DNA of 64,000 bases from Candidatus Bathyarchaeota archaeon. Lineage in GTDB: Archaea > Thermoproteota > Bathyarchaeia > Bathyarchaeales > Bathycorpusculaceae. Positions 19,930 through 35,815 of the stretch are shown here, one piece after another (the first letter of the stretch is position 1; each line of letters opens with the position of its first letter). The position numbers were made by a program, and so were the translations under genes. The notes beneath the pieces are model-generated. The model made no database searches. It saw only the letters and a list, made by a program, of their open reading frames with translations, and was not told the DNA's origin. The stretch spans positions 256,001 through 320,000 of the forward strand of contig CAWHDT010000001.1 in the NCBI GenBank assembly GCA_963828195.1, read 5' to 3'.

Positions 19930-19994
19930 TTTTACTTCCTCTTCTCATTATGCGGAAAGCAAGAATATAAGAGAAGCGTCTTTTTGGAGGCAAC

Positions 19995-20948: not shown

Positions 20949-21134
20949 GTTAATACCTCTGTTATAACACTGTTATATTCAGCGGGGAATAAATCCCTTT
21001 CCTACACAAAACATTCAGAACTTTCAAAGTAATAAACAAACCTAACCGCGAACACATCAACACGCAAAGTAAAGTCTTTAAATGTCCAACCTAATTCTAT
21101 ATTCCGCACCGCCTCAAAAAGCAAAAACATGATT

Positions 21135-21219
21135 GCGGAGGTCGCCCAGCATGGTCAAAGGCGTAGGACTGAGGCTCCTATCCCGCAGGGGTTCGTGGGT
21201 TCAAATCCCACCCTCCGCA
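21135..21219 (+). tRNA. tRNA-Leu(GAG)
   Basis: Acceptor GCGGAGG/CCTCCGC, anticodon arm TAGGA-CTGAGGC-TCCTA, long variable arm, GGTTCAAATCC T-loop; TTTAAA box upstream. Confidence 0.95.
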
Positions 21220-21401
21220 CTTTCCCCCTTTGCGCGAATTATGGCTTGATTGCTGGCTATTTTAGCAATTGCGGCTTAGAAATCGCTATTGGTTTTATCA
21301 AGAACGCAATTATCTTTAACCTTTTATTTTTCGCATAAATTCCTCTATAACCGTTGATAACAGATTTTATCAAAAACGCTTAAAATGAAGCAAAAGAAAG
21401 C

Positions 21402-22223
21402 ATGAAAGAAGTGATGCGTATGGAACAAGTAGACTGGTCATCCCTGCACAGGATTCTTGGCGATTCTACCAGAAGAAATATTCTGGAACTAATTAAGGAA
21501 AAAGACGCGATAAGCTACACCGAAATAATGTCCATCTTGCGAGTTACAAATACAGGCAGACTTAATTACCATCTCAAGGCGTTGAATGGCCTCATATCTA
21601 AAGACGATCAAGGAAAGTATCATCTAACCGAGAGAGGGCAGCTTGCAGTTAACTTGCTTCAGACTTTCCCCGAGAGACCGCGGATAGAGGAGAAGAATCG
21701 GACCGGAAAAATTATGATTGCTTCGTTTTTAATATTTCTGGGAGTTATTCTAATCTTTGCCACTAATAGATCGTTAGCCACCAACGAAGTCCCGGGAACT
21801 TTTTCCAGTCGGGTTATTCCTCAGAATACGAGTACATTCTTGACGGAAGTGTGGTTCCCGAATAATGGTTCACAATTTACCATTCATTTGGTTGCCTCAA
21901 ATTCAATAAGCCTGTATGTGGTGAATTCAACGCAATATTCTGCTTTAGAACAACAATATAGCCAAGGTTATTTTTTGGTGAATTTCACTGGGATGCCTGC
22001 TTTTTACGTCGATAGATTTACTCTGCAAAGCGCCAGCGTTTCCCTGTCTCTCCCTCAAGGGGTATATTACCTCTTTGTAGGATCAAATACCAGTTCGGTA
22101 TTGGATTCACTCACGCTGGCTCAGCAGCAACATTATCCATTATTAGATGCTGTCCCCGGTGCTCTTGGAATCTTTATGGTATCTCTTGCAATTTTAATTC
22201 TTACCCGTCGGGTTTGGCGATAA
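21402..22223 (+). CDS. ArsR-like winged-HTH protein fused to a membrane-spanning sensor domain
   Basis: ILGD.TRR.IL, LNYHLK.L.GLI.K...G.Y.LT..G; two TM helices flanking an extracytoplasmic domain. Confidence 0.78.
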   Translation: MKEVMRMEQVDWSSLHRILGDSTRRNILELIKEKDAISYTEIMSILRVTNTGRLNYHLKALNGLISKDDQGKYHLTERGQLAVNLLQTFPERPRIEEKNRTGKIMIASFLIFLGVILIFATNRSLATNEVPGTFSSRVIPQNTSTFLTEVWFPNNGSQFTIHLVASNSISLYVVNSTQYSALEQQYSQGYFLVNFTGMPAFYVDRFTLQSASVSLSLPQGVYYLFVGSNTSSVLDSLTLAQQQHYPLLDAVPGALGIFMVSLAILILTRRVWR

Positions 22224-22279
22224 GAAAATTCGGTTAAGAACATTTGAAGCAACGCCAACATACCGAGACCGTTGTCGCG

Positions 22280-22317
22280 TGAAATTTAAATGTGAATGTA
22301 AACCTACCCCTCTGCAC
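22280..22317 (+). repeat. 38-bp conserved cassette-end site, copy 1 (degenerate tRNA-Leu 3'-end-like)
   Basis: TGAAATTTAAATGTGAATGTAAACCTACCCCTCTGCAC; 36/38 identical to the reverse complement of 33053-33090. Confidence 0.85.
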
Positions 22318-22418
22318 CAGAGATTCCGAGAAGTGAAACAAAGTTTTGAGGTAGAGGATCGTCACGCGAGTTACAGAATTCTTATACTAGAAAAACCAAT
22401 TGGTAACAGGGGAAGCGA

Positions 22419-23513
22419 TTGATCAGTTCCGAGGGCTGCAAACCCGAAGCACTTTTGGAGAAAGAAGAGCAGGCTAAAAAGGTCATCGAGGAATGCAGAA
22501 GAGAGAACGGTTTCTACGCTAGTACGCAACGCTATCATGAGTTATGGCTCAGAGACTTGGTCTACTCGGAGGATGTGCTGCTCAAGCTCGGTTACCGAAG
22601 GGAAATAAAAAATCACTTATCTGAATTCATAAAGCTGCGGCGCAGAAATGGCCAGATGCCAACCGTGATCGACTTCAGCGTCAGTAAACTAATTCGACAA
22701 AGGTACCAGTCCTGCCCCTCTGACACAGAAATTCTGTTTGTCATAGGAATGCGCAAATATGCCGAGTTTGCAGGCGACCAGTTCCTTAAAGAAAATGAGG
22801 AAACCGTGAAGTCATGTGTCGCATATGTCGAGAGCAAACTCGATGAACATGGACTTGTTCCCGGCATGGACTGGAGAGATACAATACCCTGTTACAGAGG
22901 AAAGTTTCTCCTCGCTAACCAGATGCTCCTCGTCAACATGTACGAATTGCTCGAAAATCCCAAAGTTGCAAATTCAGTGAAAGAGAATGTAAACAAATTC
23001 TTTCTTTCAAAGAACCTATGTTGCTATGCGGACACCGTTTATTGGGACGGCGAACTGAAGCAGGATCGTAACTTTGACAGCTTCGGAAACGCCTTAGCCG
23101 TCATCAACGGTACCGCTTCCGAAAAAGTTTCTCAGGGCATTCTCAACGGGTTTAAAGCCGCAAAAACACCCTTCGGCTACAGAAACATTATGCCCCCGTA
23201 CGAATTCAACAGGGCAAAGCTGCTGGCAACATGGTATATCAAGTGCGGTGTAGCGAACGGCGCTTTTCTGAGAAACAAACTTGGCTTCTACCAGAACTCA
23301 GCAGTTTGGCCCTTCGTAGAGATAAGAGTGATTCAGGCGTTAACAAAACTGAAAGCGACCAGCGAAGCCGACGCAGCAACCAAGCAGATGATTGAGCGCG
23401 AGGGCTTCAACGAGTTCTATAATCCCTCAACTGGCGAGCCACGCGGAAGCAAGGGGCAGCTTTGGACGGCAGCAGCTATTCTTTCAGCAGTTGACCTTTG
23501 CAGAGTTAGCTAG
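22419..23513 (+). CDS. (alpha/alpha)6-barrel glycoside hydrolase (amylo-alpha-1,6-glucosidase/GH100-like)
   Basis: LWLRD, DWRD, FDSFGN.LA, YQN..VWP, F.EFY...G.P.GS..Q.W.AA. Confidence 0.75.
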   Translation: MISSEGCKPEALLEKEEQAKKVIEECRRENGFYASTQRYHELWLRDLVYSEDVLLKLGYRREIKNHLSEFIKLRRRNGQMPTVIDFSVSKLIRQRYQSCPSDTEILFVIGMRKYAEFAGDQFLKENEETVKSCVAYVESKLDEHGLVPGMDWRDTIPCYRGKFLLANQMLLVNMYELLENPKVANSVKENVNKFFLSKNLCCYADTVYWDGELKQDRNFDSFGNALAVINGTASEKVSQGILNGFKAAKTPFGYRNIMPPYEFNRAKLLATWYIKCGVANGAFLRNKLGFYQNSAVWPFVEIRVIQALTKLKATSEADAATKQMIEREGFNEFYNPSTGEPRGSKGQLWTAAAILSAVDLCRVS

Positions 23514-23637
23514 CAAAAAGCATAGCGTTTCAGTTCAAAAATTGAGAAACTACTCCTCTTTATATCTAACATTCATTTTCTAATTAAAAGCATTGGGAGC
23601 TCAAACGGGAGCTTTTCGTTAGAGAAAAACTAAATCG

Positions 23638-24573
23638 TTGCTGCATAGCATGATTGAGACTGAGAACCTTACAAAAAAATTCGGTGACCTGACTGCAGTT
23701 GACAATCTAACCCTCCGCGTAGACAAGAGCGAAGTCTTCGGCTTCCTCGGACCTAACGGGGCAGGAAAGACCACTACAGTTCGGATGCTCTGCTGCCTGA
23801 TATCTAAAACAAGTGGCAAAGTAAAGATTGGCGATTACGAGGTTGGCAGCCCAGAAAATGCTCTAAATATCAGAAAGATCATCGGGCTTGTCCCTGACAA
23901 CGTTGGCCTCTACGAGTCCCTTACGGCCTATGAGAACCTGGACTATTACGGGACGCTGTACAGGCGCACTGACTCCCAGAGGAAAGAAAGCAATGAATAC
24001 TTCCTCAAGTTGCTGGGGCTCTGGGATAAGAGAGATGCTCTGGCGGGAACATTCTCGAAGGGTATGAAACAAAAGCTCGCCATAGCACGCGCCCTGATCC
24101 ATGACCCCGAGATACTTATCATGGATGAGCCAACCGCAAACCTGGATCCTGAGGCTTCAAAGGCGGTGCGGGAGTTCATCCTCGAACTGAAGAAGGAGAA
24201 AAAAACCATCTTCATCAATACGCACAACCTCGATGAGGCCGAGAGAATCTGCGATAGGATCGGCATCTTGAATACGCGTCTGATGGCCGTGGGTACACCT
24301 GAGGAGCTCGAACGGTCGATCCGCGGAAGAAAGACAGTGATCCAGCTTAAACGGGTGAACGAAGCCATCTTGGATTCGCTCAAGAAACTACAGGTCAAGA
24401 ATCTGGTCAGGGATGGCAATAAGCTGACGATTGATGTCGTTGATTCCGAGGAAGAGAATCCTGACATGGTAAACGCGATTGTCGCTGCGGGAGGACGCGT
24501 CGAGACAGTAACGGTGATCGGCAGCTCGCTAGAAGACGCTTACCTGAAACTAGTGAGGGAGAATGCACAATGA
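23638..24573 (+). CDS. ABC-2 type transporter ATP-binding protein
   Basis: GPNGAGKTT, FSKGMKQK, MDEPT, THNL. Confidence 0.93.
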   Translation: MLHSMIETENLTKKFGDLTAVDNLTLRVDKSEVFGFLGPNGAGKTTTVRMLCCLISKTSGKVKIGDYEVGSPENALNIRKIIGLVPDNVGLYESLTAYENLDYYGTLYRRTDSQRKESNEYFLKLLGLWDKRDALAGTFSKGMKQKLAIARALIHDPEILIMDEPTANLDPEASKAVREFILELKKEKKTIFINTHNLDEAERICDRIGILNTRLMAVGTPEELERSIRGRKTVIQLKRVNEAILDSLKKLQVKNLVRDGNKLTIDVVDSEEENPDMVNAIVAAGGRVETVTVIGSSLEDAYLKLVRENAQ

Positions 24574-25301
24574 CCACATGGATGCCTTGGAAGATAGCAC
24601 GCAAAGAATTGAAGGTGATCAGCAGAAAAAAGAGCATCATTTTCTACACGATTGGGCTTCCCCTTCTCATCTCAATTGTTTTCTCGTTCGTTATCAAGAG
24701 CCAAATAGTTAATGGAATCCCAACGACAATATCACTTGGTGCCGAATCAAGCGTTTACCTCTTCGTTGTTTTAGCAGCTTCCCTGCCCAGTACGATCGCA
24801 GCGTACAGTATAGTGGGTGAAAAGATTGAGAAGACACTGGAACCTTTGCTTGCGACTCCGACTACTGACAATGAAATCCTCCTAGGAAAAAGTATCGCAG
24901 CGTTCATACCGCCAATTATATCGATATGGGCGGCAGCATCAATCTTTATGGCAGCAACGGACTACATACTCTACAACGGAGGGTTAAGCTACTATTATTT
25001 TCCCAACTGGACTGCTGGAGTTATGCTGTTACTTCTTGCTCCTCTTGCAGCGATTTTCAGTATTGAAGTAGGAGTGATGGCGTCATCTCGAGTGAATGAC
25101 GTTCGAGGCGCAAACCAGATCGCAGGTATCATGTTTATCCCATTCATAGTTGTCTTTCTAGCGGCTGTCGAAGGACTTTTCACTTTCAGCATCGGTAACC
25201 TTCTGGTCTTCGCTGCCATAGTAATCGTTGTCGATATAGCTCTTTTCTTCTTAACCAAATCCACTTTCAAACGAGAAGAGATTCTCACAAAGTGGAAATG
25301 A
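24570..25301 (+). CDS. ABC-2 type transporter permease
   Basis: IARKE, SIVGEK..KTLEPLLATP, multiple TM helices. Confidence 0.88.
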   Translation: MTTWMPWKIARKELKVISRKKSIIFYTIGLPLLISIVFSFVIKSQIVNGIPTTISLGAESSVYLFVVLAASLPSTIAAYSIVGEKIEKTLEPLLATPTTDNEILLGKSIAAFIPPIISIWAAASIFMAATDYILYNGGLSYYYFPNWTAGVMLLLLAPLAAIFSIEVGVMASSRVNDVRGANQIAGIMFIPFIVVFLAAVEGLFTFSIGNLLVFAAIVIVVDIALFFLTKSTFKREEILTKWK

Positions 25302-25310
25302 GGTCGTTGA

Positions 25311-26443
25311 TTGGCCGCCGAGTTAATCAGTAACGAAACCCCAGCAGGAAAGAAAGGCTACTCTTCATCGATAATCTAAGACTGCTGGTAATCGTGTTGG
25401 TTGTCACGATCCACTTGGCAGTGACGGTTAGCAACTTTGGCAGTTGGTACTACGTTTACAGTATCCATCTTGATACGCTATCCACCGTTTGGTTCGCCTT
25501 CTACCAGTCGTTCACACAGGGATACTTCTTGGGGCTTTTGTTCATGATTTCTGGCTATTTTGTCGCAGGAAGCTATGACCGGAAAGGCTTCGGCGGGTTC
25601 GTCGGAGACAGATTCAAACGCCTAATCATCCCAACCCTGATTTTCCTGATTGCAATAACGCCGTTCATCGAAATCATCGAACTCAGCAGCAAGCCGTCTG
25701 GCTTCAATTTGGCAGGTTTTCTTTCGGGCACCGGTCCGATGTGGTTCGCTGCGGCACTTTTCGGGTTTTGCTTGATTTACGGGCTATGGCGACTGGTCGC
25801 TCGCAGATTCGCTCCTGAAAGGAAACCGCTCGAACCGACCTGGGGTATGGCAGTCAGCCTAGTCCTGATTATCGCCGTTTTTGCCTTCCTGATTAGGATA
25901 GTTCAGCCGATTGGGGCAAGCATCCTGAACTTTCAGCTCTGCTACTTCTCTTCATATATAGTTCTCTTCATTGTGGGCATCCTAGCTTACAGAAGCAACC
26001 TGTTCGCTAAGATCAGCTATCGAACGGGGAAAAGATGTGTAATAGGTGCCATTGTCTTGGGCTTCTTGGTTTGGTTCGTCTTGGTGGTAATAGTCACGGC
26101 AACTGGGACAACAGGTGCCATTGATGGAGGGCTGACCTGGCAGAGCGCAGCATATTCAGTATGGGAATCCTCGGTCGCGGTTGCCATGAGCATCGGTCTA
26201 ATCGGCGTCTTTAGGGAAAAATTCAACCATCAAGGCAAGTTTGTCAAAACACTTTCAGATAACTCGTTCTCCGTATACCTGTTTCACCCTATGATCATTA
26301 TCCCAGTCACATTGTTGTTTAGCCCGCTTGTGTTGTACCCAGTTGCAAAATGGCTTCTGCTCTGTGTCATTTGCATTCCATTATGCTTTGCCGCAACATA
26401 CTTTATCTTCCGCAGGATACCGTTATTGAAAAAAGTCCTCTGA
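25311..26443 (+). CDS. Acyltransferase-3 (OpgC/OafA-like) membrane acyltransferase; apparent 1-nt frameshift near 25350
   Basis: ERLLFIDNLR...LVV..H, FMISGYF, DRFKRL, WF, SFSVYLFHP; the RBS and TTG at 25311 are one frame off from the body. Confidence 0.8.
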
Positions 26444-26478
26444 AAATGAGCCTGAAGTGTCTTTCGACCTCTCTAAAG

Positions 26479-26955
26479 TCATTTTAGTTCTTTGAGTAAA
26501 GCCTTGGCTTCAGGCGTTATTTTTGGTCTGTTTCTTCGATCAATGACTAAAAACAAAGACCCAATTATAATCAGAGCTATGCCGAAGAACGTTACGCTTA
26601 AGATTGGGACAAGCTTTAGTTCAAGCCCCAAAGTAAAAGCAATTATTCCGATTCCGATAAAGATCATTATCGAGTTGCTTCTGGACGCTGTTGCGTGCAG
26701 GGCAAACTCTTTCTTTCCTTCCTCCGTCACGACATAGTAGCCCTGTTTTTCCTCTATCATGCCGGCGGTCAAAAGATAATTCCAGTCATAGTGGAAGTGG
26801 CCGTCCGACTTATAGCCCAACGCAGAGCTGATGCTTGATTTAACTCCTGGTTCAGCCTTGATTCTGCTGTTAGGAGCGGAGTAGATGAAGTACAGCAGCT
26901 TGGTTCTTGGCGACTGAATATCGGCGCTTATTCCACGTGGCTTTGACACTTGCAT
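26479..26955 (-). CDS. Winged-helix protein with two C-terminal TM helices (membrane-tethered regulator)
   Basis: HFHYDWNYLL.AGMIEE..GYY.VT.EG wing motif, then two hydrophobic helices. Confidence 0.65.
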   Translation of the reverse strand: MQVSKPRGISADIQSPRTKLLYFIYSAPNSRIKAEPGVKSSISSALGYKSDGHFHYDWNYLLTAGMIEEKQGYYVVTEEGKKEFALHATASRSNSIMIFIGIGIIAFTLGLELKLVPILSVTFFGIALIIIGSLFLVIDRRNRPKITPEAKALLKELK

Positions 26956-27050
26956 CCACTGCTCCAGCTATTCGGCATCGGTAAGATAAATGAAGCTCTG
27001 CGGTTAAATTTTCTTTCCATGATTTCACCATAATACTCGTTTTGCTTATG

Positions 27051-27109
27051 ACTCTAACTCTTAGAGGATTTGCTCTAAGTGCCAGAGCGTTTGCTCTAAA
27101 TGTTAGGGC
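27051..27109. promoter_or_regulatory. Three tandem 17-bp palindromic operator-like sites
   Basis: ACTCTAACTCTTAGAGG, GCTCTAAGTGCCAGAGC, GCTCTAAATGTTAGGGC at 21-bp period. Confidence 0.7.
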
Positions 27110-27169
27110 TATAACCAACAGGCAACTTTTATGGTTCCAAGAATCAAAAAGTTAGGAGGAAAACAAAAA

Positions 27170-27871
27170 ATGGGTACAAGTTTCGAATATAGCAAAACTT
27201 TGGCTGGCGAAGGCTCAATACTGCTTTTACTAGGTTTAGTTCCCTACGTAGGCTGGGTATTGGGCATCATTGGTGGAATACTGCTTCTCAGAGGTGTCAA
27301 AGAACTTGCAAATTACTATCACGATAACGAAATCTACCAGAATACACTAACAGGCGTCAAATACTACATAATTGCTTTGATCGCTGCGGCAGTGGCCATT
27401 ACGGGGATATTGATCGGCGTTGGAACCGCAACAGGCTTCAAATATTCATCACACTTCGCGTTAACTGCGGGCTTCGGAATTGGATTAGCAATTTTCTTTG
27501 GCGGGCTTATAATCGCTTTCATATTCTTTGTACTTGCGTCATTGCGCCTAAGAGAAACCTTCAACACGCTCGCGCAGAAGTCAGGAGAGCACTCGTTTAC
27601 AACAACTGCCACTTTACTTTGGTGGGGCTCCCTACTAACCATAATAGGTATCGGCTTAATTCTGATATTCATCGCTTGGATATTCGCAGTAATCGGCTTC
27701 TTCTCCATGAAATCTCAGCAACAAAATGCCACACAACAATACAGTTACACTCCACCTTCCATCTCAGGACCCACAGCAACGCCATCTCAAACGGCACGGT
27801 ACTGTTCATACTGCGGCGCACCAGTAAAGCCCGATGCAATTTATTGCCCTAATTGCGGAAAACAACTATAA
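27170..27871 (+). CDS. DUF996-like membrane protein with C-terminal zinc ribbon
   Basis: K.LAG.GSIL..., F......L.WG..L.II.IG.IL..IAWI...IGFF, YCSYCG...YCPNCG; GGAGG RBS before ATG 27170. Confidence 0.75.
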   Translation: MGTSFEYSKTLAGEGSILLLLGLVPYVGWVLGIIGGILLLRGVKELANYYHDNEIYQNTLTGVKYYIIALIAAAVAITGILIGVGTATGFKYSSHFALTAGFGIGLAIFFGGLIIAFIFFVLASLRLRETFNTLAQKSGEHSFTTTATLLWWGSLLTIIGIGLILIFIAWIFAVIGFFSMKSQQQNATQQYSYTPPSISGPTATPSQTARYCSYCGAPVKPDAIYCPNCGKQL

Positions 27872-28084
27872 CTTAAAACCCTTTTTTTATTTTTTTATAT
27901 TTATCAGATCCTCAGTTTTCACCTTGCATTTACAAGGAATAAGGCAGAAAAATTGATTTTAGGTTAATCAGGAATAATAGATTATTTGCAAGGGCATTTT
28001 TTCATCAAAAAAATGTTTTTTTTTAAGTAACGGTTAAAAGGCAACGATGCACACAATATTCAAACAATCAAAGGCTGATTCAAC

Positions 28085-28705
28085 ATGCAATCTGCTAAAA
28101 CCGAGCAAAAAAGAAAATTTGTAGCCGTTGACCCGGGCAAGTGCATCGGCTGCGGGATCTGCGAGTATGCTTGCACTCTTGAAAAAGGAGAAGGCATCTG
28201 GAACCCAATGAAGTCCCGAATCCGAGTTGTCCGCATGGCTCCACTCTTTAACTTTGCACTCTCATGTCGAGGATGCAAAGACGCCAGATGCGTTAAGGCG
28301 TGTCCGGAAAACGCGATTTCGCAATCAGAAGAAACCGGTTTACTAATCATTGATGACAAAAAATGTAAAGGCTGTGACTGGTGCGTTCAAGCCTGTGAAC
28401 ACGGAGGAATCACAATCAACTGCGACACAGGGAAAGCTATTGCATGCGACCTCTGTCAAGGCGAACCCAAATGCAAAGAAGCGTGCCCAGAAGAAGCCTT
28501 GGAAATCGTGGATTCAGATGAGGCCGCAGAAAAACTCTTCAACGGGGCACTGGAAAAACTGCCCGCACAATGCGACCAGCTAACCGTCACTGTCAAAAAC
28601 AAAGACTGGAAACCCCTGTTGGCAGTTGCAGAGAAACGCTCTGAGAAAGTCACAAAGACGCTTGAAACGTTAAACAAGAAGGCAATGGCTAAAAAACAGA
28701 AATAG
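28085..28705 (+). CDS. 4Fe-4S dicluster electron-transfer protein (CooF/HydN/DmsB-like)
   Basis: CIGCGICEYAC, CRGC..A.CVKACP, CKGCDWCVQAC, CDLC....C..ACP. Confidence 0.88.
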   Translation: MQSAKTEQKRKFVAVDPGKCIGCGICEYACTLEKGEGIWNPMKSRIRVVRMAPLFNFALSCRGCKDARCVKACPENAISQSEETGLLIIDDKKCKGCDWCVQACEHGGITINCDTGKAIACDLCQGEPKCKEACPEEALEIVDSDEAAEKLFNGALEKLPAQCDQLTVTVKNKDWKPLLAVAEKRSEKVTKTLETLNKKAMAKKQK

Positions 28706-28714
28706 CCTCCTTTT

Positions 28715-29566
28715 CTAAATTTTGTTTTCTTCGTAGCCTCTCAAAAACATGTCAATATCTACCCCAACTTTTTCACCTACGTAGCCGCCTTCCAAAACAA
28801 AAAACGCGGGTTTGCCGAGCAAAGCAACCTTTTTTCCAATCTCAAAATAATCCTTTTCGATTAAGCCTAAGGACGCTAAATCGCCCAGATGTGTATCGAA
28901 ACCCGCGGAAACCGCAAGCACCTCAAACCTGCCTAAATCAACTGTTTCCAAGGCCTTGTCCAGCGTTTCCAAGTATCTTTTTCCCCCGCAAGTTGTTGGC
29001 AAAGCAAAATTGACACTGTTGCCCTGAGTGGAAGAGCCTGTTCCAGGATAATTAGGCGATTCGTGCAGCGAAACGTAGAGGATTTTGTCGTCTCCTTGAA
29101 AAATCTCCTGGGTTCCGTTGCCGTGGTGTCCGTCGATGTCCAGAATCAGCGTTTTTTTGTTCAATTTTTTAACGGCTATTGCGATGTTGTTGAGATAGCA
29201 AAACCCACGTGTGTTAACACCCAAAGCAGCGCCATTTCTGCCAACATGGTGCCCCGGCGGACGCATAAGGGAAAACCCGTTAATTTTTGAGGCTAAAAGT
29301 GCGGCGCCGACCGAAAGCTTGGCAAACTCGTAGATTCTGTCGTATGCAGGTGTATCTGGATCTTCAACTAAACCTTTCTTTAGGTTCCAAAGGTAATCTG
29401 AATCATGAACTGTTAACAAGTCTTCTTCGCTTGCAGGTGTTGGCTCCAAAAACTCGTAACCTTTGGCTTTGAGGATTTCAGATGCAATTTTAACACGTTG
29501 AGGTCCTTCAACGTGCCATGTGCCGTAGCCTAAACATTTTTCTGAGTAAACAATCTTTGTCTTCAT
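28715..29566 (-). CDS. Histone deacetylase / acetylpolyamine amidohydrolase family protein
   Basis: H.E.P.R, RPPGHH, GFCYLNN, DIDGHHGNGTQ, SAGFD, LEGGY. Confidence 0.92.
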   Translation of the reverse strand: MKTKIVYSEKCLGYGTWHVEGPQRVKIASEILKAKGYEFLEPTPASEEDLLTVHDSDYLWNLKKGLVEDPDTPAYDRIYEFAKLSVGAALLASKINGFSLMRPPGHHVGRNGAALGVNTRGFCYLNNIAIAVKKLNKKTLILDIDGHHGNGTQEIFQGDDKILYVSLHESPNYPGTGSSTQGNSVNFALPTTCGGKRYLETLDKALETVDLGRFEVLAVSAGFDTHLGDLASLGLIEKDYFEIGKKVALLGKPAFFVLEGGYVGEKVGVDIDMFLRGYEENKI

Positions 29567-29653
29567 TGTTAACTCCATTAAACAGATAAGTGACGCTTTC
29601 ATTTAAAATATCACCTTCCCCAGTTACTCTCCAAGCAATCGGAGACAAATTTA

Positions 29654-31603
29654 ATGATTTCAGAAAATCCCTTTGATCAATTTCGCCAAGAATGCCAGGC
29701 AGCGTTGACGCATGCGTTAAAGAAGGCTTTGCCAGAAATAAAAACGCCCCCTATAACGTTAAGTAAAACGCCAAATATTGAATATGGCCAGTTAGCTTCG
29801 TCTCTATGTTTTGAGTTGGCGAAGAAACTGAACCAAAAGCCGCTGGATCTCGCGGGGGTTCTTGTCGCAGCAATCGACAAATCCAGCTTTAACTTGATTG
29901 AGCAGGTTTCGTGCGCGGGTGCAGGGTACATAAATTTCTATGTTAACTTCGCCAAGTTTTCAGCTTTAACTTTGGAGTCAATTAAGCAGTTAAAGTTCGA
30001 TTATGGCTTTGTCAAGACTGCTGAGCCAACCAAAATCATTGTCGAGCATACAAGCGTTAATCCGCTTCATCCAATCCACATCGGGCAAGCCAGAAACCCC
30101 ATGTTAGGCGACGCTTTAGCACGCATTTTAGAGTGCAGGGGAAACACAGTTTCACGCCACTACTATATTGACGATGTCGGCAGGCAATCATCTGTAGTCG
30201 CCTACGGCTACAATAAGCTCGGCAGGCCAAAGCCAACGGAGAAGCCTGACCTTTTTGTTGGCAAAATCTACACCGTGACCAGTTGCCTTGTAGAAATTAA
30301 CCGTTTGAAGAGACTGCGGGAACTCGCAATTGCTGTTCATTCAAGTGACGATTTAGTTAAAGCAAATAAGGAAATTGACGAGTGGATGTCAATTGCCGCT
30401 GAACTTAAAGAAAAGTACCCTGTGCTTTTTGAAGCGTTAATGGCTAAAATCGGCGAGGACGAAAATCCAGAGGAGGAAATAAACCGGTTGAACCGAGCTT
30501 ACGAGGATGGAGAACCCCGCGCTAAACAGCTTATTCGCGAAGTCAGCGATTTGTGCCTCGAAGGCTTCAGGGAAACGCTGAAGCGGGTTGGAGTTACTTA
30601 CGACTCGTGGGATTGGGAAAGCGACTTTGTATGGAGCACGCAAGTCAGTGAGGTTTTGCGGAAGCTTAAGACTTCGCCCTTTGTTTACAGCGAAAAAGGC
30701 GTGTTGGAGTTTGACGCGGAAAAGGTAGTTGAGGTCCTAAAGTTGAAGCCGAAGTTGGGTTTAAGCGAGAACAACGAGGTTTCCCCTTTAACGCTTGGGC
30801 GTGCCGACGGCACCTCACTATACACAACACGCGATATAGCCTATACACTGTGGAAGTTTAAGCAAGCAAAAAAAGTCATCAATGTAATCGGCATGGAGCA
30901 ATCGCTGGCGCAGCTGCAGCTTAAAATTGCGCTCTACGCCTTAGGCTGCGGCGAATACGCTGGTAATCTGGTTCATTTCGCCTACAACCTGGTTACTTTG
31001 CCCGGTTACAAGATGAGCAGCCGCCGGGGACACTACATCACGTTGGACCAGGTTCTTGACGAAGCGGTTCAACGAGCCTACGAAGAAGTTTCGAAGCGCT
31101 CCCCCCAGCTTTCCGAGGAGGAAAAACGGAAAATCGCCAGCTTCGTCGGTTTAGGGGCGGTGCGTTACGCTCTTGTCGATGTTGACTCGTCTAAGCCAGT
31201 CGTATTTACTTGGGAACGCGTGCTTAACTTCGAAACCAACAGTGCACCATACGTTCAGTACACCCACGCGAGGGCATGCAGCATTTTGCGTAAAGCCGCA
31301 AGAGAACCCGAAAACCCCGATTACAGCCTGCTCAACGAAAAGCTTGAGCGCGAGCTCATCATGAACCTCTCAAGCTTCCCAGACACATTCATCGAAGCCA
31401 CAGAATACCTAAAACCCAACTTAATCGCCGACTACACCAACGCGTTAGCAGACAAATTCAACACCTTCTACAACGCGTTGCCAGTGCTGAAGGCTGGGAC
31501 AGAGGGGCTTGTTGATGCACGTTTGACATTGACGAACGCTATAGAGACTGTGATGCATAATGCTTTGACGCTTATCGGGGTTACGGCACCAGAAAAAATG
31601 TGA
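29654..31603 (+). CDS. argS: Arginine--tRNA ligase
   Basis: VEHTSVNP..P.HIGQARN, RADGTSLY.TRDIAY, KMSSRRG, APYVQY.HAR.CSI. Confidence 0.97.
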   Translation: MISENPFDQFRQECQAALTHALKKALPEIKTPPITLSKTPNIEYGQLASSLCFELAKKLNQKPLDLAGVLVAAIDKSSFNLIEQVSCAGAGYINFYVNFAKFSALTLESIKQLKFDYGFVKTAEPTKIIVEHTSVNPLHPIHIGQARNPMLGDALARILECRGNTVSRHYYIDDVGRQSSVVAYGYNKLGRPKPTEKPDLFVGKIYTVTSCLVEINRLKRLRELAIAVHSSDDLVKANKEIDEWMSIAAELKEKYPVLFEALMAKIGEDENPEEEINRLNRAYEDGEPRAKQLIREVSDLCLEGFRETLKRVGVTYDSWDWESDFVWSTQVSEVLRKLKTSPFVYSEKGVLEFDAEKVVEVLKLKPKLGLSENNEVSPLTLGRADGTSLYTTRDIAYTLWKFKQAKKVINVIGMEQSLAQLQLKIALYALGCGEYAGNLVHFAYNLVTLPGYKMSSRRGHYITLDQVLDEAVQRAYEEVSKRSPQLSEEEKRKIASFVGLGAVRYALVDVDSSKPVVFTWERVLNFETNSAPYVQYTHARACSILRKAAREPENPDYSLLNEKLERELIMNLSSFPDTFIEATEYLKPNLIADYTNALADKFNTFYNALPVLKAGTEGLVDARLTLTNAIETVMHNALTLIGVTAPEKM

Positions 31604-31620
31604 GACGGTTCTTGGCTCTT

Positions 31621-31858
31621 TTTTAAAAGAACAACAACACTCAAAAAACAACTGTTGTTCTTCTAACCGTGATTAAAACGGCTTGTTTTAGGCTGCATTT
31701 TTGAATTTTTCTATTTTGAATTCGTAGCGCTTGGTTTGATTATGGGTTAAAGATGTTTTTTCAAAAGAAGAAGCTTGGAAAAAATGTTTTTCTTCTTCTT
31801 CTTCCTTCTTGGATGATTGTTCTGTTTTAGGTTGTTTTTTGGTTTAGCGTGTTGAATT
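31621..31858 (-). repeat. Dispersed intergenic hairpin repeat, copy 2 (type A and type B hairpins)
   Basis: Reverse complement matches 6316-6496; 31621-31664 matches 61999-62044. Confidence 0.8.
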
Positions 31859-31940
31859 ATGTTGCAGGTGCATTATTGACTGTTTTCTCTACGGCAAATT
31901 TCATATACAAGCCAATTAACATAAAACGAGGTGCATACTA

Positions 31941-33005
31941 ATGAGTAATCCATACTTCAAAAAGAAACTCCAACCAATCAAAGTAAAACAGAAAAGCATC
32001 TCACAGCTTTTAGCCGACATGAGCAAAACCGCTTACCAAGGGCGCAAGCTCGGCGAAGCCGTTGATGTTTGGGAAAACATGCTTAAAGAAAAAGACCTCA
32101 CCATCGCCATGGGCTTTGCTGGCTCCATGAGCACGGCGGGGCAGTGGACAATAATCAACTGGCTTATGGAAAACCGCTTCATCGACGTGCTGGTCTCCAC
32201 CGGCGCCAACGTCTCCGAAGACATCGTTGACGCCATGGGGTTAGGTTACTATCAAGGCAGCCACATGGTAAACGATGAGCAACTTCTCCACGACGACGTC
32301 AACCGATACTACGACGTATACGGCAAAGAAACCGACTACCGAGAAATGGAAACCCTCGTAACAGACTTCGTCATGACCTGCAAAACCGACTACAACTACA
32401 CCTCAGCCGAATTCCTCTATCTGCTAGGCAAATACTTGGAAAAGAAAAAAATCCCCGCCATCTCCGCAGTCGCAGCAGCCAACGGCGTCCCAATCTTCAG
32501 CCCAGCTATGGTTGACAGCGCCTACGGCGAAACCTTCTTGATGGCGAAAAACCAAGGCCACAACGTCACAATTGACTCCGTTAAAGAGTTCGACCAGTTC
32601 GTCAGCATAGGCACAAGAACCAAGGAGGTCGGCGTTGTCTATATCGGCGGCGGAGTCCCCAAAGACCTCACCCAGCTCATCGCCATCTCAGTCTCACCGC
32701 TCACATGTGACCAAGGAGTAAAAGGCAGAAAAGGCGGCTTACGCAAAGGCTTACAGGAATACTACTACCCCCACAAATACGCCATACAAATAACCACAGA
32801 CTCACCCCAATGGGGCGGCTTAAGCGGCTGCACACTGGAAGAAGCCATCAGCTGGGGCAAAATCAACAGCCAAGAAGGAACACGAGCAGTCTGCTACTGC
32901 GACGCAACCATCGCGCTGCCGTTAATAGCCCACGCACTCTGCGAGCGGGTTCCAGAAAAACGCAAAGGACCAGACATGAGCTGGCTATTCAAAGGCGTCC
33001 AATAA
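31941..33005 (+). CDS. Deoxyhypusine synthase paralog (homospermidine synthase/SpeY-like)
   Basis: LVSTGAN, IGGGVPKD, YAIQITTDSPQWGGLSGCTLEEAISWGK, DATIALP. Confidence 0.88.
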   Translation: MSNPYFKKKLQPIKVKQKSISQLLADMSKTAYQGRKLGEAVDVWENMLKEKDLTIAMGFAGSMSTAGQWTIINWLMENRFIDVLVSTGANVSEDIVDAMGLGYYQGSHMVNDEQLLHDDVNRYYDVYGKETDYREMETLVTDFVMTCKTDYNYTSAEFLYLLGKYLEKKKIPAISAVAAANGVPIFSPAMVDSAYGETFLMAKNQGHNVTIDSVKEFDQFVSIGTRTKEVGVVYIGGGVPKDLTQLIAISVSPLTCDQGVKGRKGGLRKGLQEYYYPHKYAIQITTDSPQWGGLSGCTLEEAISWGKINSQEGTRAVCYCDATIALPLIAHALCERVPEKRKGPDMSWLFKGVQ

Positions 33006-33052
33006 ACCACCAATTTTTAATTTTTATTACCTAAACTGATGGCTCAGGTATA

Positions 33053-33090
33053 GTGCAGAGGGTTAGGTTTACATTCACGTTTAAATTTCA
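33053..33090 (-). repeat. 38-bp conserved cassette-end site, copy 2
   Basis: Reverse complement TGAAATTTAAACGTGAATGTAAACCTAACCCTCTGCAC. Confidence 0.85.
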
Positions 33091-33138
33091 GGCAACGAGC
33101 CGCGAGCAGTTTGTCATAATCGAAATTAATCAAAGGTA

Positions 33139-33933
33139 TCAGGAGATGCTCTTTGACTTACGTTTCCTGTTACGAATATACAAAACCGATGCGCCAGCTG
33201 CCACAACTGCTACCACGGCTGCAACGACAACGTAAATGGCAAGAGTTGTGGTTGAAAGAGTGGAAGATGGAGCAAGTGTGGCAATTGGCCCGATGGGACT
33301 TTCCTCCCACCATGCGACAGTCGAATTGACTGTTTCGACTGCCTGAGACATTTCTTGTTGAGTGAGTCCTCCAGAATCAGTAATTGTCTGGTTTGCCTGC
33401 AGCAAGACGGTGCTGTTACTTGCGACGTCTTGAACCTCAACCAAGCCCTCAATTACCATCACATTAGCGCTGCCATTCTCATATGCTGTCGCAGTAAATT
33501 CAGTTCCTCGAATCCCAACAACAGCGCTGTCACCAATATCAGCTTCCCAATTATCGGATCCACCGGTCGCGCTTTGGATGTTTGCCCATTGAGTACCAAG
33601 CCAGAGCAATAAGCGGTAATGGTGGTGAGGGTCTATATAAGTGACATTGGTATTCTGGCCTAATAGGATTTTACCGCCTGAGAATTGCACTAACAGTACA
33701 CTATTCGGTCCTGTCATTATCATGTCCCCTGTACTTATAGTGTCAGAGGGAACTAAAGGTGTCCATTGAATGCCTCCGTTGGTGCTTATCTCCACTGTCC
33801 CAGATATCCCTTGAATGGTAATAGGTTGCTCTGTGGACCCATTAACTGCGGGTACAAGTGCTGGAATTGATGTGAATGCTGCCGCTACTATGATAGCCGC
33901 CATGATTAATGCCATACTATAACTGTAGCCCAC
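33139..33933 (-). CDS. FecR-domain surface protein with signal peptide and C-terminal TM
   Basis: G.VE......W..L.....I.TGD.I.TG.NS, AVVGIRGTEF, V.VIEG.VEV. Confidence 0.78.
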   Translation of the reverse strand: MGYSYSMALIMAAIIVAAAFTSIPALVPAVNGSTEQPITIQGISGTVEISTNGGIQWTPLVPSDTISTGDMIMTGPNSVLLVQFSGGKILLGQNTNVTYIDPHHHYRLLLWLGTQWANIQSATGGSDNWEADIGDSAVVGIRGTEFTATAYENGSANVMVIEGLVEVQDVASNSTVLLQANQTITDSGGLTQQEMSQAVETVNSTVAWWEESPIGPIATLAPSSTLSTTTLAIYVVVAAVVAVVAAGASVLYIRNRKRKSKSIS

Positions 33934-34226
33934 ACTTGCGCCCTCTGCAAAGTTCTTCCAAGTAAAAGCTTTCCATCTCTAATTTAAAACCTTTGCAAAT
34001 ATGCCTAAAGAGTCGGTTAGATACAAAGTTGCACAAATCAAGCAACTTAAGGTTAGATGAGGTGCATCCATCGTATTCGAAGCATGCCGTATCCCATTGA
34101 TCAGGCGCTTGTTAGAATAAGTACATGAACCCTTGAAATCATGTCTAAACTTAGCGCGCGATTCGCGAAAAGGCTTTACTTTCAAAATAGGTAGTATTGA
34201 GGCTTTATTTGGCAAAATGGGCAAAG

Positions 34227-34311
34227 TGCGGAGGGTGGGATTTGAACCCACGAACCCCTGCGGGATAGGCGTCTCAGTCTAACGTTTTGGCTATGTTTAG
34301 CAGAACTCCCG
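34227..34311 (-). pseudogene. tRNA-Leu(GAG) pseudo-copy / att-like site
   Basis: 34223-34269 is identical (47 bp) to 21177-21223; the 5' half is degenerate and the anticodon stem does not pair. Confidence 0.85.
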
Positions 34312-34465
34312 ATTGGTTGATAAGCCGATGCTGCTTTGCTGTTTTTTTGAGCTTGTCTCCACTTGTCTTTTCCACATAGATATGATAGGTTGCTGCGATT
34401 AGTAGAAGTATAATTGATGGGACAAACGTGATGACGGACGAATCTGAGAAGGCGTCAGTGGCCGT
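34312..34465 (-). pseudogene. Remnant of a PIN-domain (VapC) toxin
   Basis: Overlaps the antitoxin stop; reads (ACG)ATDAFSDSSVI, resembling the PIN N-terminal 'D.SV' motif; start lost and body truncated. Confidence 0.45.
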
Positions 34466-34688
34466 GGTCTCTGTCTTCCCTGATAATGTCAGCGGACGAT
34501 GCAGTAACACCTGTCTTTTTTTCAAGCTCAATGCTGAACTTCTCAGTTTCTTTCAAGACGCGCTTTAGCTTCTCAACCTTAACTTTTCTTTCAAGGCATT
34601 CCCTGACATCATCTGCATAGTCTAAATTGAGCTCTTGAAGTTCATCCGTAAGTCTTTTCGGAACTCTGACCACAATTACATCGCTCAT
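34455..34688 (-). CDS. VapB-like ribbon-helix-helix antitoxin
   Basis: MSDVIVVRVPK.L..EL, C-terminal SSADIIREDRD typical of archaeal VapB. Confidence 0.75.
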   Translation of the reverse strand: MSDVIVVRVPKRLTDELQELNLDYADDVRECLERKVKVEKLKRVLKETEKFSIELEKKTGVTASSADIIREDRDHGH

Positions 34689-34778
34689 AATAACAGTTCT
34701 CTGTAAACTAGAATAAAAAAATAATTGTCAACAGAAAGTTAACACGAAAATTAAAAAACAGCTGTCATGCGTTATCTA

Positions 34779-35750: not shown

Positions 35751-35815
35751 AACGAATAGCTCCTTGCACTGGATAAATCAATGTTACAATAAATAGGTGT
35801 CGAAACGTCTCTGAG

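Follow-up and report, generated by a model that had tools for sequence, protein, structure and literature searches.

A 64,000-nt stretch of the genome of a Candidatus Bathyarchaeota archaeon (GCA_963828195.1, contig CAWHDT010000001.1, positions 256,001 to 320,000), hereafter the window, contains two cassettes, unit 1 and unit 2. We interpret both, with a probability of about 0.72, as miniature integrase-less integrative elements of a genus-restricted family that integrated at a tRNA gene's 3' end through conservative site-specific recombination. Sequence comparison with related genomes showed that the sites form a family whose ends match the local tRNA, located the insertion junctions, and established that the cargo varies and that unit 2 is orthologous to a cassette of a relative. 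We rate the cassettes as CIME-like accretion arrays, a variant of a known phenomenon. How the abundant but uncultured Bathyarchaeia exchange genes is poorly known. In one large soil and peat genus of these archaea, a few tRNA genes appear to serve as docking sites, at which short integrase-less cassettes accumulate and are reshuffled between species and tRNA loci.

The tRNA-Leu locus and its repeats

The only tRNA in the window is tRNA-Leu(GAG), which was found by ARAGORN and on which Rfam concurs. Genes for a PALP enzyme and a hexapeptide transferase (Pfam) lie upstream of it. It has no encoded CCA, which at least 32 of the 46 tRNA genes of this genome possess. The features of the locus are listed below.

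21135-21220, +, tRNA-Leu(GAG), intact, without encoded CCA (ARAGORN; Rfam tRNA, 52.5 bits)
21211-21220, +, last 10 nt of tRNA-Leu, CCCTCCGCAC, presumed crossover segment of attL
21221-22319, +, unit 1 cassette, in place, at the usual position after tRNA-Leu
21221-21265, +, P' arm of unit 1, the element-side flank of attL, TTTCCCCCTTTGCGCGAATTATGGCTTGATTGCTGGCTATTTT.. (sequence)
21402-22223, +, unit 1 cargo, winged-helix (DUF7347/ArsR-like) protein with membrane segments, 273 aa (Pfam)
22268-22319, +, attR-type site of unit 1 (nhmmer E 1.7e-13)
22320-33050, chromosomal segment of 10.7 kb enclosed by two inverted sites (Pfam)
33051-33102, -, attR-type site of unit 2, module + ..AACCCTCTGCAC + TA (nhmmer E 6e-13)
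33139-33933, -, unit 2 cargo, FecR-domain-like membrane protein, 264 aa (Pfam, weak match)
34181-34225, -, P' arm of unit 2 (sequence)
34226-34284, -, displaced inverted copy of the tRNA-Leu 3' half, anticodon loop to discriminator (repeat search, blastn)
34285-34688, -, outer junction of unit 2 (comparison with the relative G016)
34285-34431, -, 147 nt of unmatched sequence at the outer junction (sequence comparison)
within 34285-34688, -, vapC-like PIN gene, first ~15 codons only (comparison with G016)
34455-34688, -, intact vapB-like small ORF (translation)

The first-pass annotation had reported a 47-bp tRNA segment and a 38-bp site, each present twice, and both repeats were recovered. The 47-mer has two exact copies, 21177-21223 (+) and 34223-34269 (-), while the 38-mer is found at 22280-22317 (+) and 33053-33090 (-) with 36 of 38 positions identical and 2 mismatches. 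For each repeat, two matches were obtained in 0 of 100 shuffles and the chance expectation is 0. Both repeats stand in inverted orientation within the window. In a repeat search, the tRNA-side repeat extends to 85 nt at 85% (21162-21246 / 34200-34284) and the site-side repeat to 44 nt at 91% (22274-22317 / 33053-33096); blastn gives 65 nt at 94% identity for the tRNA side. A manual count on the sequence finds the 38-bp site alike to the T-arm and acceptor at 17 of 26 positions.

Structure of the two units

The cargo of unit 1 matches the Pfam families DUF7347 (E 4.1e-11) and HTH_20 (E 1.2e-6), and its paralogues adjoin other tRNA-linked sites. In the site of unit 1, the module extends to 22306 and an acceptor-like core, ..CCCCTCTGCAC, to 22317, followed by CA, which is a remnant of the original CCA. 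The unit is bracketed by a tRNA 3' repeat with both copies on the + strand, CCCTCCGCAC at 21211-21220 and CCCTCTGCAC at 22308-22317. No exact empty-site partner of unit 1 was found among the relatives compared.

Unit 2 has the same internal order as unit 1, and the whole unit is inverted relative to the tRNA gene. It had first been taken for another, independent cassette with a tRNA half as its anchor; the comparison with G016 replaces this by a displaced and inverted former tRNA-proximal cassette. The G016 cassette located directly after tRNA-Leu aligns to unit 2 with 91.35% identity over 1237 nt, with homology that starts inside the tRNA and ends at the GCAC in the site. By this alignment, unit 2 is the orthologue of the tRNA-Leu-proximal cassette of G016. 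Its P' arm resembles the arm that follows tRNA-Leu in G016, G003, G075, G076 and G101. The FecR match of the cargo is weak (E 1.1e-4; 23 bits, just below the 24-bit cut-off). The cargo is present in one copy in this genome (tblastn), and its homologues are found at tRNA-Leu in G016 and within tRNA-Ser arrays in G123 and G121. The cargo proteins of the two units are unrelated (BLASTP E 0.30). The displaced tRNA-Leu 3' half received no tRNA call from ARAGORN or Rfam.

In the window, unit 2 lies between two deoxyhypusine synthase genes, DS1 and DS2, beside a truncated vapC-like gene, and its site faces the 3' end of a convergent gene. At the equivalent place, G016 has vapB, an intact vapC-like gene and one extra small gene; vapB and DS2, which flank unit 2, are syntenic with G016. 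The names vapB and vapC are a reading of the translations, and the family scan named neither. The outer junction is unlike a clean att junction, as it is composed of 147 nt of unplaced origin and a broken vapC. The 147-nt segment has no match elsewhere in the genome or in the relatives' loci compared.

A site family across the genus

The 38-bp site is not a decayed tRNA copy; it belongs to a conserved family present in 48 of the 120 genomes of this Bathyarchaeia genus, at 92 or more places. The proposal against independent decay of the two distal sites from the tRNA is upheld: they are copies of a conserved element arm. A reversed-pattern control gave 0 matches in the genus genomes. This genome has six strong copies and one weak copy (nhmmer). 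In other families of the order, the module was found in 0 of 16 genomes. Exact module matches among 185,579 species genomes amount to 40 stretches, 38 of them titled Bathyarchaeota or Bathyarchaeia. The site is not confined to the window, nor is the cargo fixed in relatives.

Each copy is composed of a conserved module of ~38 nt, about 10 nt corresponding to the 3' strand of the nearby tRNA's acceptor, and usually CCA. The site ends match whichever tRNA is close by, including Leu-GAG, Ser-GCT, Met and others; they read ..CCCTCCGCACCA at tRNA-Leu(GAG), ..CATCCCGCGCCA at tRNA-Ser(GCT), ..CCCCTGCACCA at tRNA-Met and ..CCCGGCGCCA at tRNA-Ser(GGA). Over 35 aligned sites, conservation begins ~50 nt before the CCA and stops at the CCA, and the left boundary is sharp and common to these sites. 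A flank of the kind seen in the P' arm of unit 1, ..TTTGCCC.TTTTGCCAAATA.RGCTTGATTA..TATTT, is found genus-wide after tRNA-Leu, tRNA-Ser and tRNA-Met genes that lack CCA, and after many sites. Of the 60 sites in loci that have tRNA-Leu, tRNA-Ser or tRNA-Met, 58 are located downstream on the strand of the tRNA. The module could serve as a sequence tag for finding cassettes in metagenomes. An orphan copy lies 87 nt downstream of an RNase P RNA gene, with no tRNA nearby.

Cassettes, arrays and insertion junctions

The median cassette is 1.9 kb long, and as the intervals span 313 to 9241 nt, the term single-gene cassette does not hold strictly. The cargo, which varies between genomes at the same tRNA as first suggested, includes regulators, membrane sensors, redox enzymes, methyltransferases and toxin-antitoxin pairs. 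The place of a whole cassette in the array can differ from one genome to another. A full-length match of 1345 nt at 94.6% is second in the array of G094 and first in G113, and a 1.87-kb cassette is first in G019, G003 and G130 and second in G095. Leu- and Ser-anchored arrays have cargo in common, and tRNA-adjacent insertions differ between fairly close relatives. An island of 7 kb in G003 contains an IS transposase. The P' arm at one end of a unit does not resemble the module at the other, and the inverted repeats are found between units and not within them; a transposon or MITE was rejected because a unit has no terminal inverted repeats.

In three occupied/empty pairs, the point of insertion coincides exactly with the 3' end of the tRNA. 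In the empty state, seen in G095, tRNA-Leu ends ..GCACCA|ATGATTTTTTCATTTAAG. In the occupied state, seen in G004, tRNA-Leu is followed by TTTGCCCC.. plus 2 kb, and the G095-type flank follows the site (84% over 199 nt). The further pairs, G113/G094 and G019/G095, are at tRNA-Ser. As judged from these alignments, the attL junction is made of the tRNA and the P' arm, and the attR junction of module, core and CCA. In 33 parsed tRNA-Leu(GAG) loci, a downstream site was found in 0 of 16 with encoded CCA and in 10 of 17 without it (1.0-6.9 kb away), an association that is inflated because the locus set was partly chosen for the module or a similar flank.

Integrases and mobility

The first-pass annotation described the units as devoid of an integrase, and indeed a Pfam scan of 20 ORFs between 18871 and 37388 gave no match to the integrase domain PF00589. 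This domain is found at five places in the genome, all on other contigs. Within the sequence examined, an integrase is near the site in 2 of 61 genome loci with the site and in 3 of 80 metagenome loci. Co-occurrence with a single recombinase had been suggested as a check, but no recombinase could be tied to the module. The common integrase family of the genus is present in 98 of the 119 other genus genomes, whether or not they have the module, and it is absent from this genome at E<=1e-25. The cassettes of this genome are therefore probably immobile at present. An integrase abuts tRNA-Leu in G069, G126 and G093. In the relatives' loci L110 and L232, an integrase lies directly beside a tRNA-Ser 3' copy, and an older cassette with its site comes after that copy; this accretion is absent from the window. 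Low-depth short contigs from 4 runs contained no circular junction, empty site or inversion isomer, and a search for a free attP on virus-like contigs gave 0 matches in IMG/VR. We infer that a tyrosine integrase performs the recombination and that the small cassettes are movable in trans.

Comparison with known systems

In integrons, attC is an imperfect palindrome that folds as a hairpin, its structure being conserved rather than its sequence. The present arrays resemble integrons in having short cassettes, each closed by a recombination site and carrying variable cargo of mostly one or two genes, and in the entry of new cassettes at the anchor-proximal end. However, the anchor here is a tRNA gene and not an attI beside intI, no IntI-like gene is adjacent, and the closing site is conserved in sequence and forms no hairpin (fold z -0.95, +0.40, +0.75). 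The cargo can also lie on either strand, as shown by the RibD_C ORF of G016 (L029 9586-10194, +), which is opposite to tRNA-Leu (-). An integron was rejected, as there is no intI/attI at the array head and the site is not of the attC type.

The portion consulted of a source on streptococcal ICE/IME systems describes CIMEs and site-specific accretion at tRNA genes (PMC5704250). CIMEs, like the cassettes, keep attL and attR and have lost the integration genes, and decayed elements adjoin integrase-bearing ones (PMC5704250, same portion). In the window, attL and attR are kept while integration and transfer genes are absent, and 59 of 61 site loci are integrase-free. The cassettes differ from CIMEs in being archaeal, smaller (median 1.9 kb, some <1 kb) and without conjugation context; they also pair one conserved arm with cores for several tRNAs, and are known from sequence alone.

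The archaeal elements that integrate into tRNA genes by tyrosine integrases include pTN3/TKV4, SSV-type elements and thaumarchaeal cryptic integrated elements (CIEs). According to the parts consulted of PMC5495485, PMC8371274 and PMC6563490, they share with the cassettes integration in the 3' part of the tRNA, tandem integration and integrase-less forms. The same parts report integrase-driven inversions between att sites and the excision of dormant TKV4 by Int-pTN3 supplied in trans; the thaumarchaeal CIEs, unlike the cassettes, are 2.6-98 kb with an integrase as part of their definition. The cassettes have tRNA 3' repeats in the same orientation at both ends and a precise empty attB in relatives, and they lack an integrase gene inside the element. 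Their attR repeat, in contrast to that of the archaeal elements, is a conserved non-tRNA module with only ~10 nt of tRNA. SSV-type integration was rejected, as no split integrase is found at the units and the repeat-abutting ORFs (33979-34251, 34274-34531 and 34455-34688) have no Pfam match at E<=0.01. According to the excerpt of PMC3146451, the tandem islands at the Dehalococcoides tmRNA gene are likewise integrated site-specifically at the end of a small RNA gene; that system is bacterial, and its islands carry reductive dehalogenase operons.

Proposed mechanism and alternative explanations

The attP of such a miniature element would consist of the ~38-nt module, the right half of which is T-arm-like, ~10 nt identical to the acceptor 3' strand of the target tRNA, and a ~45-nt P' arm. 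Crossover would take place within the acceptor segment. Integration would give an attL made of tRNA and P', depriving the tRNA gene of its encoded CCA, and an attR made of module, acceptor segment, original CCA and former downstream flank. Newcomers would enter beside the tRNA and displace older elements outward, building arrays. For the relocation of unit 2, we infer the following route. Unit 2 probably lay next to the tRNA at one time, where its counterpart in G016 still lies. The duplicated tRNA 3' half would then have joined it, which in relatives seems to occur via a later integrase-bearing element with a longer att core. A later rearrangement may have inverted this piece between DS1 and DS2, truncating vapC. 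A fixed arm with a short tRNA-specific crossover segment would offer a substrate for studying how archaeal integrases choose and change their targets.

A more ambitious and rather doubtful reading sees an integron-like archaeal cassette platform docking at tRNA genes, with one recombinase recognising the T-arm-like module. Strand exchange would occur in the ~10-nt acceptor segment, and another 10-nt core would retarget the cassette (Leu, Ser, Met). New cassettes would enter beside the tRNA, where a BRE/TATA-like box in the module might drive the next one, and the inverted sites and tRNA halves would make a housekeeping segment of 10.7-13 kb invertible.

It is unlikely that the cassettes are inert scars, that is, true att junctions of full-size integrase elements that integrated long ago and later suffered massive deletion, the small cassettes never having been mobile as units and the sites no longer being acted upon. 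Integrase-less integrated elements and tandem integrations are described for archaea in the part of PMC8371274 consulted, and the absence of the common integrase family from this genome and the G003 island with its transposase fit such decay. In the one orthologous pair read in this way, window and G016, conservation of the site does not exceed that of the cassette body. Random deletion, however, would not leave the same sharp ~50-nt boundary beside unrelated cargo at 35 sites, nor would it account for the end-to-end recurrence of cassettes of 0.3-1.4 kb elsewhere in the arrays of other species, or for tRNA-adjacent insertions that differ between fairly close relatives. The module might instead be conserved as a functional cis-element of host or cassette, for example an archaeal promoter or small RNA, since it contains GTGAAATTTAAAC, which resembles a BRE with TATA, oriented to the downstream cassette in all copies, and since the orphan copy beside the RNase P RNA gene has no tRNA nearby. 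This is very improbable: no Rfam family matches the site at E<=1, its folding is no stabler than that of shuffled sequences (z -0.95 to +1.08), the site of unit 2 faces the 3' end of a convergent gene, and a promoter leaves the tRNA-specific last 10 nt and the occupied/empty junctions unexplained. A promoter role could nevertheless be compatible with an att role. Finally, we give hardly any credence to unit 2 as an assembly artefact, or to the units as an ancient inverted segmental duplication with diverged cargo. No independent contig spans the DS1/site junction, and the one contig that crosses the tRNA 3' half (33917-34301) extends just 17 nt past it; yet the contig of the window is 447 kb in an assembly of 9 contigs, the cargo proteins are unrelated, and G016 has the FecR cassette with the same ends and the syntenic vapB and DS2.

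The segment between the units

The mutual inversion of the units, with 10.7 kb of housekeeping genes between them, had been underplayed. The enclosed genes (Pfam) encode a GH-like protein, an ABC transporter (2 genes), an acyltransferase, DUF2207_C and DUF996 proteins, a ferredoxin, an HDAC-like protein, ArgRS and the deoxyhypusine synthase DS1. The inverted pair is a candidate for recombination sites that reorder housekeeping genes, as in Thermococcales. The order Fer4-HDAC-ArgRS-DS1 and its orientation relative to tRNA-Leu are kept in 20 of 27 relatives' loci.

Repeat pairs in the window

The window has a single tRNA gene, tRNA-Leu(GAG), as called by ARAGORN and Rfam. A 47-nt repeat, which consists of the 3' part of this gene and the three next bases, has an exact second copy on the opposite strand, and a 38-nt site downstream of the gene has a second copy with 2 mismatches; none of 100 shuffles reproduces either. 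With the repeat finder, the former grows to 85 nt at 85% and the latter to 44 nt at 91%. Each unit has one gene between the tRNA part and the site, and the two cargo proteins are unrelated. The two repeat pairs with single-gene units, described in the first-pass annotation, are thus confirmed.

Features of the window
21135-21220 (+), tRNA-Leu(GAG) gene
21221-22319 (+), unit 1, the cassette after the tRNA gene
21402-22223 (+), unit 1 cargo, DUF7347/ArsR-type winged-helix protein with membrane segments
22280-22317 (+), 38-nt site
31941-33005 (+), deoxyhypusine synthase paralogue
about 33051-34284 (-), unit 2
33053-33090 (-), second copy of the 38-nt site
33139-33933 (-), unit 2 cargo, weakly FecR-like membrane protein
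34223-34269 (-), second copy of the 47-nt repeat
34779-35750 (-), deoxyhypusine synthase paralogue

The units are mutually inverted and enclose 10.7 kb of ordinary genes, including those for ArgRS and a deoxyhypusine synthase. A scan of 20 ORFs in the interval 18871-37388 detected no integrase domain, and an SSV-type split integrase flanking the units was likewise unsupported by the ORF scan around them. The deoxyhypusine synthase paralogues, which face each other and are about 24% identical by tblastn, form a pair that is conserved throughout the genus, usually as immediate neighbours.

A site family with tRNA-matched ends

A 37-nt site pattern, with up to 3 mismatches, finds only the two window places in the 2.83-Mb, 9-contig genome (G000); further copies were recovered by blastn and then with an nhmmer profile. 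Three lie on contig 3, downstream of tRNA-Ser(GCT), one on contig 5, and a weak one (E 0.14) on contig 6, 570 nt downstream of tRNA-Met. These copies agree over their first ~38 nt (..TTTYTCGYGTGRAATTTAAACGTGRRTGTAAACCTAAC), hereafter the module. The last ~10 nt, the core, vary among copies and equal the acceptor 3' strand of the adjacent tRNA, being CCCTCYGCAC for Leu, CATCCCGCGC for Ser and CCCCTGCAC for Met; after most copies comes CA, making up the full CCA. Relatives have the module attached to ends that fit tRNA-Ser(GGA) and other tRNAs as well.

Allowing up to 2 mismatches, a 24-nt pattern of the module occurs at no fewer than 92 places in 48 of the 120 genomes of the genus, so the 38-mer is not confined to the window; the reversed pattern, used as a control, occurs at none in the same genomes. 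With a 20-nt pattern, 8 of 24 genomes of the genus were positive, against none of 16 from other families of the order. A scan for exact matches, with one genome per species (185,579), returned 40 stretches, 38 of which are titled Candidatus Bathyarchaeota or Bathyarchaeia, the other two coming from metagenome bins bearing other labels. As a free attP, the module had no match in IMG/VR viral contigs. In 35 aligned copies, conservation sets in sharply about 50 nt before CCA and ends at CCA, with nothing conserved upstream.

The contig-5 copy is an orphan Leu-type site (141453-141499, -; locus L019), located 87 nt downstream of an archaeal RNase P RNA gene (141586-141890, -; Rfam 190 bits), and ARAGORN called no tRNA within 27 kb of it. 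The G000 genes for tRNA-Ala(CGC), tRNA-Leu(TAG) and tRNA-Thr(GGT) also have partial 3' copies, spaced by 0.7-2.3 kb and with true T-arms instead of the module (contig 5, 248138-249757; contig 9, 109428-113793), so that short-interval tRNA-end repeats are general in this genome. ARAGORN further called tRNAs with very long introns on contig 7 (257869-258912, 951 nt) and contig 3 (439493-439725, 143 nt), which may be false or unusual genes.

Occupied and empty junctions

Of the 46 tRNA genes in G000, at least 32 encode CCA; tRNA-Leu(GAG) and the contig-6 tRNA-Met lack it. Both CCA-less genes are followed by a T-rich recurrent flank, P' (..TTTGCCC.TTTTGCCAAATA.RGCTTGATTA..TATTT), and the sites downstream of both have CCA. 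We parsed 33 of 34 tRNA-Leu(GAG) loci, a biased set in which only L070-L089 (n = 20) were picked on contig size alone and the others were selected for the module or a long flank match: the 16 CCA-bearing loci have no module site in the 12-17 kb examined downstream, and 10 of the 17 CCA-less loci have at least one same-strand site, 1.0-6.9 kb downstream. Within L070-L089, CCA is missing from 3 of 20 loci, with sites in 2 of those 3.

Pairs of genomes from the same genus reveal both states of the locus (a slash marks the junction). At Leu(GAG), the empty tRNA end of G095 reads ..CCCTCCGCACCA/ATGATTTTTTCATTTAAG..; in the occupied G004, the G095 flank comes after the site (..CTAACACTCTGCACCA/ACGATTCTTTCATTTAAG.., 84% over 199 nt) and the tRNA itself reads ..GCAC/TTTGCCCC.., leading to 2 kb of other DNA. 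At Ser(GCT), a cassette that directly follows the tRNA in G113 is found after the site in G094, where a different cassette lies beside the tRNA, and G019 (empty) and G095 (occupied) have the same relation. The post-site sequence of G003, G075 and G098 corresponds to the post-tRNA sequence of G087 (~80% over ~345 nt), and that of G101 to the sequence after the tRNA 3' copy in G075 (88% over 408 nt).

These pairs are the decisive result. By these pairs, the insert extends from P' up to the module and the acceptor segment is the duplicated, presumed crossover region, which is the signature of conservative site-specific recombination. The tRNA with P' is attL, and the module, core, CCA and old flank form attR. 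The earlier proposal of a conserved recombination site, not a product of tRNA decay, is supported by the genus-wide module family, its tRNA-matched ends and these insertion junctions. The module could possibly be a promoter, since it contains a segment, GTGAAATTTAAAY (22276-22292 and 33078-33094), that resembles an archaeal BRE and TATA box, directed toward the CCA end; however, a promoter role leaves the tRNA-specific end and the junction pairs unexplained. No structured RNA or known RNA family was found at the site.

Cassette sizes, cargo and reshuffling

Units 1 and 2 are members of a family, spread across the genus, of cassettes that lack an integrase and dock at tRNA genes. The 87 annotated loci hold 95 sites, in 61 of them. 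Intervals closed by a site (n = 70) range from 313 to 9241 nt with a median of 1875 nt; 28 are up to 1.5 kb, 26 are 1.5-3 kb and 16 exceed 3 kb. At tRNA-Leu(GAG), relatives keep a backbone of hexapeptide transferase, PALP enzyme, tRNA-Leu, variable island, ferredoxin, HDAC-like protein, ArgRS and the deoxyhypusine synthase DS1, followed by the convergent second synthase gene, DS2, and RimK. The cargo of the island varies by genome, as judged from 20 of about 47 island ORFs.

Cargo of tRNA-Leu islands
G003, peroxiredoxin, catalase-peroxidase, IS transposase and PNPOx-like protein
G096, NHL-repeat protein
G076, two methyltransferases
G118, PQQ propeller
G016, RibD_C protein and flavodoxin
G075 and the window, DUF7347 regulators

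Complete cassettes reappear end to end across species, at differing array positions. A 1345-nt cassette (94.6%) is at position 2 in G094 and position 1 in G113, one of 1.87 kb is at position 1 in G019, G003 and G130 and position 2 in G095, and one of 1.23 kb follows a site in G019 and the tRNA in G098. Leu and Ser arrays have cargo in common: the G003 Leu island shares 2.2 kb at 85% with the first tRNA-Ser interval of G078, and G016 has the FecR gene at tRNA-Leu, with G123 and G121 having it in tRNA-Ser arrays. For unit 1, no orthologue with arms was found, only gene-body homology, the best being 86% over 317 nt to a G016 locus that has no tRNA or site in ~3.3 kb.

DUF7347/ArsR-like membrane proteins, such as that of 21402-22223, recur beside tRNA-linked sites. 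In G000, one such gene follows a tRNA-Arg(TCG) lacking CCA at a distance of ~160 nt (contig 8, 183934-184239) and another follows the tRNA-Met site (contig 6, 41571-41912); others are found in a Ser-type array of G016 (L028, a stretch without a called tRNA) and in the G075 Leu island.

Proposed recombinase and known systems

Tyrosine integrases directly follow tRNA-Leu(GAG) in G069, G126 and G093, where the distal repeat simply copies the tRNA and is not the module. A search of 88 loci with a home-made profile and ORFs of at least 150 aa, which may overlook divergent recombinases and genes that are short or broken, gave 6 integrases, 2 of them within the 61 site-bearing loci. Among 80 mostly short metagenome loci, 3 have an integrase, and none has an obvious free module-core-P' beside an integrase on a circular contig. 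The common integrase family of the genus, that of locus L110, is present in 98 of the 119 other genus genomes, and its distribution therefore does not follow that of the module; G000 lacks it at E ≤ 1e-25, and five other PF00589 matches in G000 are all off the window's contig. The single tyrosine recombinase anticipated to co-occur with the module was thus not identified. From the anatomy of the junctions and from known systems, we infer that a tyrosine integrase may act on the module and that the cassettes may move in trans; such trans-mobilisation is plausible.

The nearest concept to the cassettes is the cis-mobilizable element (CIME) and the accretion model of streptococcal ICEs and IMEs (PMC5704250). 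For archaea, published accounts cover elements integrated in tandem, integrated elements that lack an integrase, inversions driven by integrases, and a dormant element excised by a related integrase (PMC8371274, PMC5495485). Cryptic integrated elements of 2.6-98 kb are defined by an integrase (PMC6563490), and integration-derived tRNA gene fragments are termed pervasive (PMC9897764). Full-text literature searches, at the level of result listings and abstract openings, gave no account of the module, nor of arrays of integrase-less cassettes at Bathyarchaeia tRNA genes.

Origin and displacement of unit 2

Unit 2 aligns with a cassette located directly after tRNA-Leu in G016 (91.35% over 1237 nt); the alignment starts inside the tRNA, and homology stops at the GCAC of the site. 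The G016 cassette is in direct orientation and is followed by a second cassette and site. Its FecR orthologue is split into two overlapping ORFs (L029, 10367-11276; tblastn pieces q1-103 and q108-264), through a frameshift or else a sequencing error.

DS1 and DS2 adjoin in most relatives. In G016 they are separated by three genes, one vapB-like, one PIN-like and a further small one; the window has the same vapB-like gene, and its PIN-like gene ends after ~15 codons, followed by 147 nt, the inverted tRNA half, P', FecR, the site and, 45 nt beyond, DS1. The 45-nt and 147-nt junction sequences have no match in G000 or in the fetched loci of relatives. At loci with a Leu, Ser or Met tRNA, 58 of 60 sites are downstream on the strand of the tRNA, the exceptions being the unit 2 site and one in G010. 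The latter (L036, 6910-9204) is of the Ser type with a P'-like flank, and is head to head with a tRNA-Ser gene 2.1 kb off.

The G016 orthology, the DS1/DS2 context and this orientation argue that unit 2 is a displaced, inverted, former tRNA-proximal cassette, and not a separate insertion. Of the two cassettes first proposed, unit 1 is thus a cassette in place and unit 2 its displaced former neighbour. The tRNA half may have been gained when an element with a longer att core integrated later; this would yield the arrangement of L110 and L232, where a tRNA-Ser 3' copy has an integrase gene immediately on one side and an older cassette with its site on the other. The contig-3 array of G000 has an internal tRNA-Ser half of the same kind, followed by a P' arm.

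Since the cargo is unrelated and G016 has an orthologue, an inverted segmental duplication is excluded. Unit 2 is unlikely to be an assembly artefact. Low-depth contigs of a few hundred nt, from 4 of the 20 read runs identified, contain no joints at the sites and leave the DS1/site junction unbridged. The outer junction of unit 2 is not a clean att junction. For the relocation of the former tRNA-proximal cassette, we considered two nested inversions, as well as excision between two sites with re-insertion of the circle carrying the tRNA half.

Inversions recur beside the tRNA-Leu(GAG) hotspot. The ferredoxin-HDAC-ArgRS block is inverted with respect to the tRNA in 7 of the 27 loci that show both (L071, L074, L083, L084, L086, L088 and L097), and in L086 and L088 DS1 keeps its usual orientation with respect to the tRNA, opposite to the flipped ArgRS.
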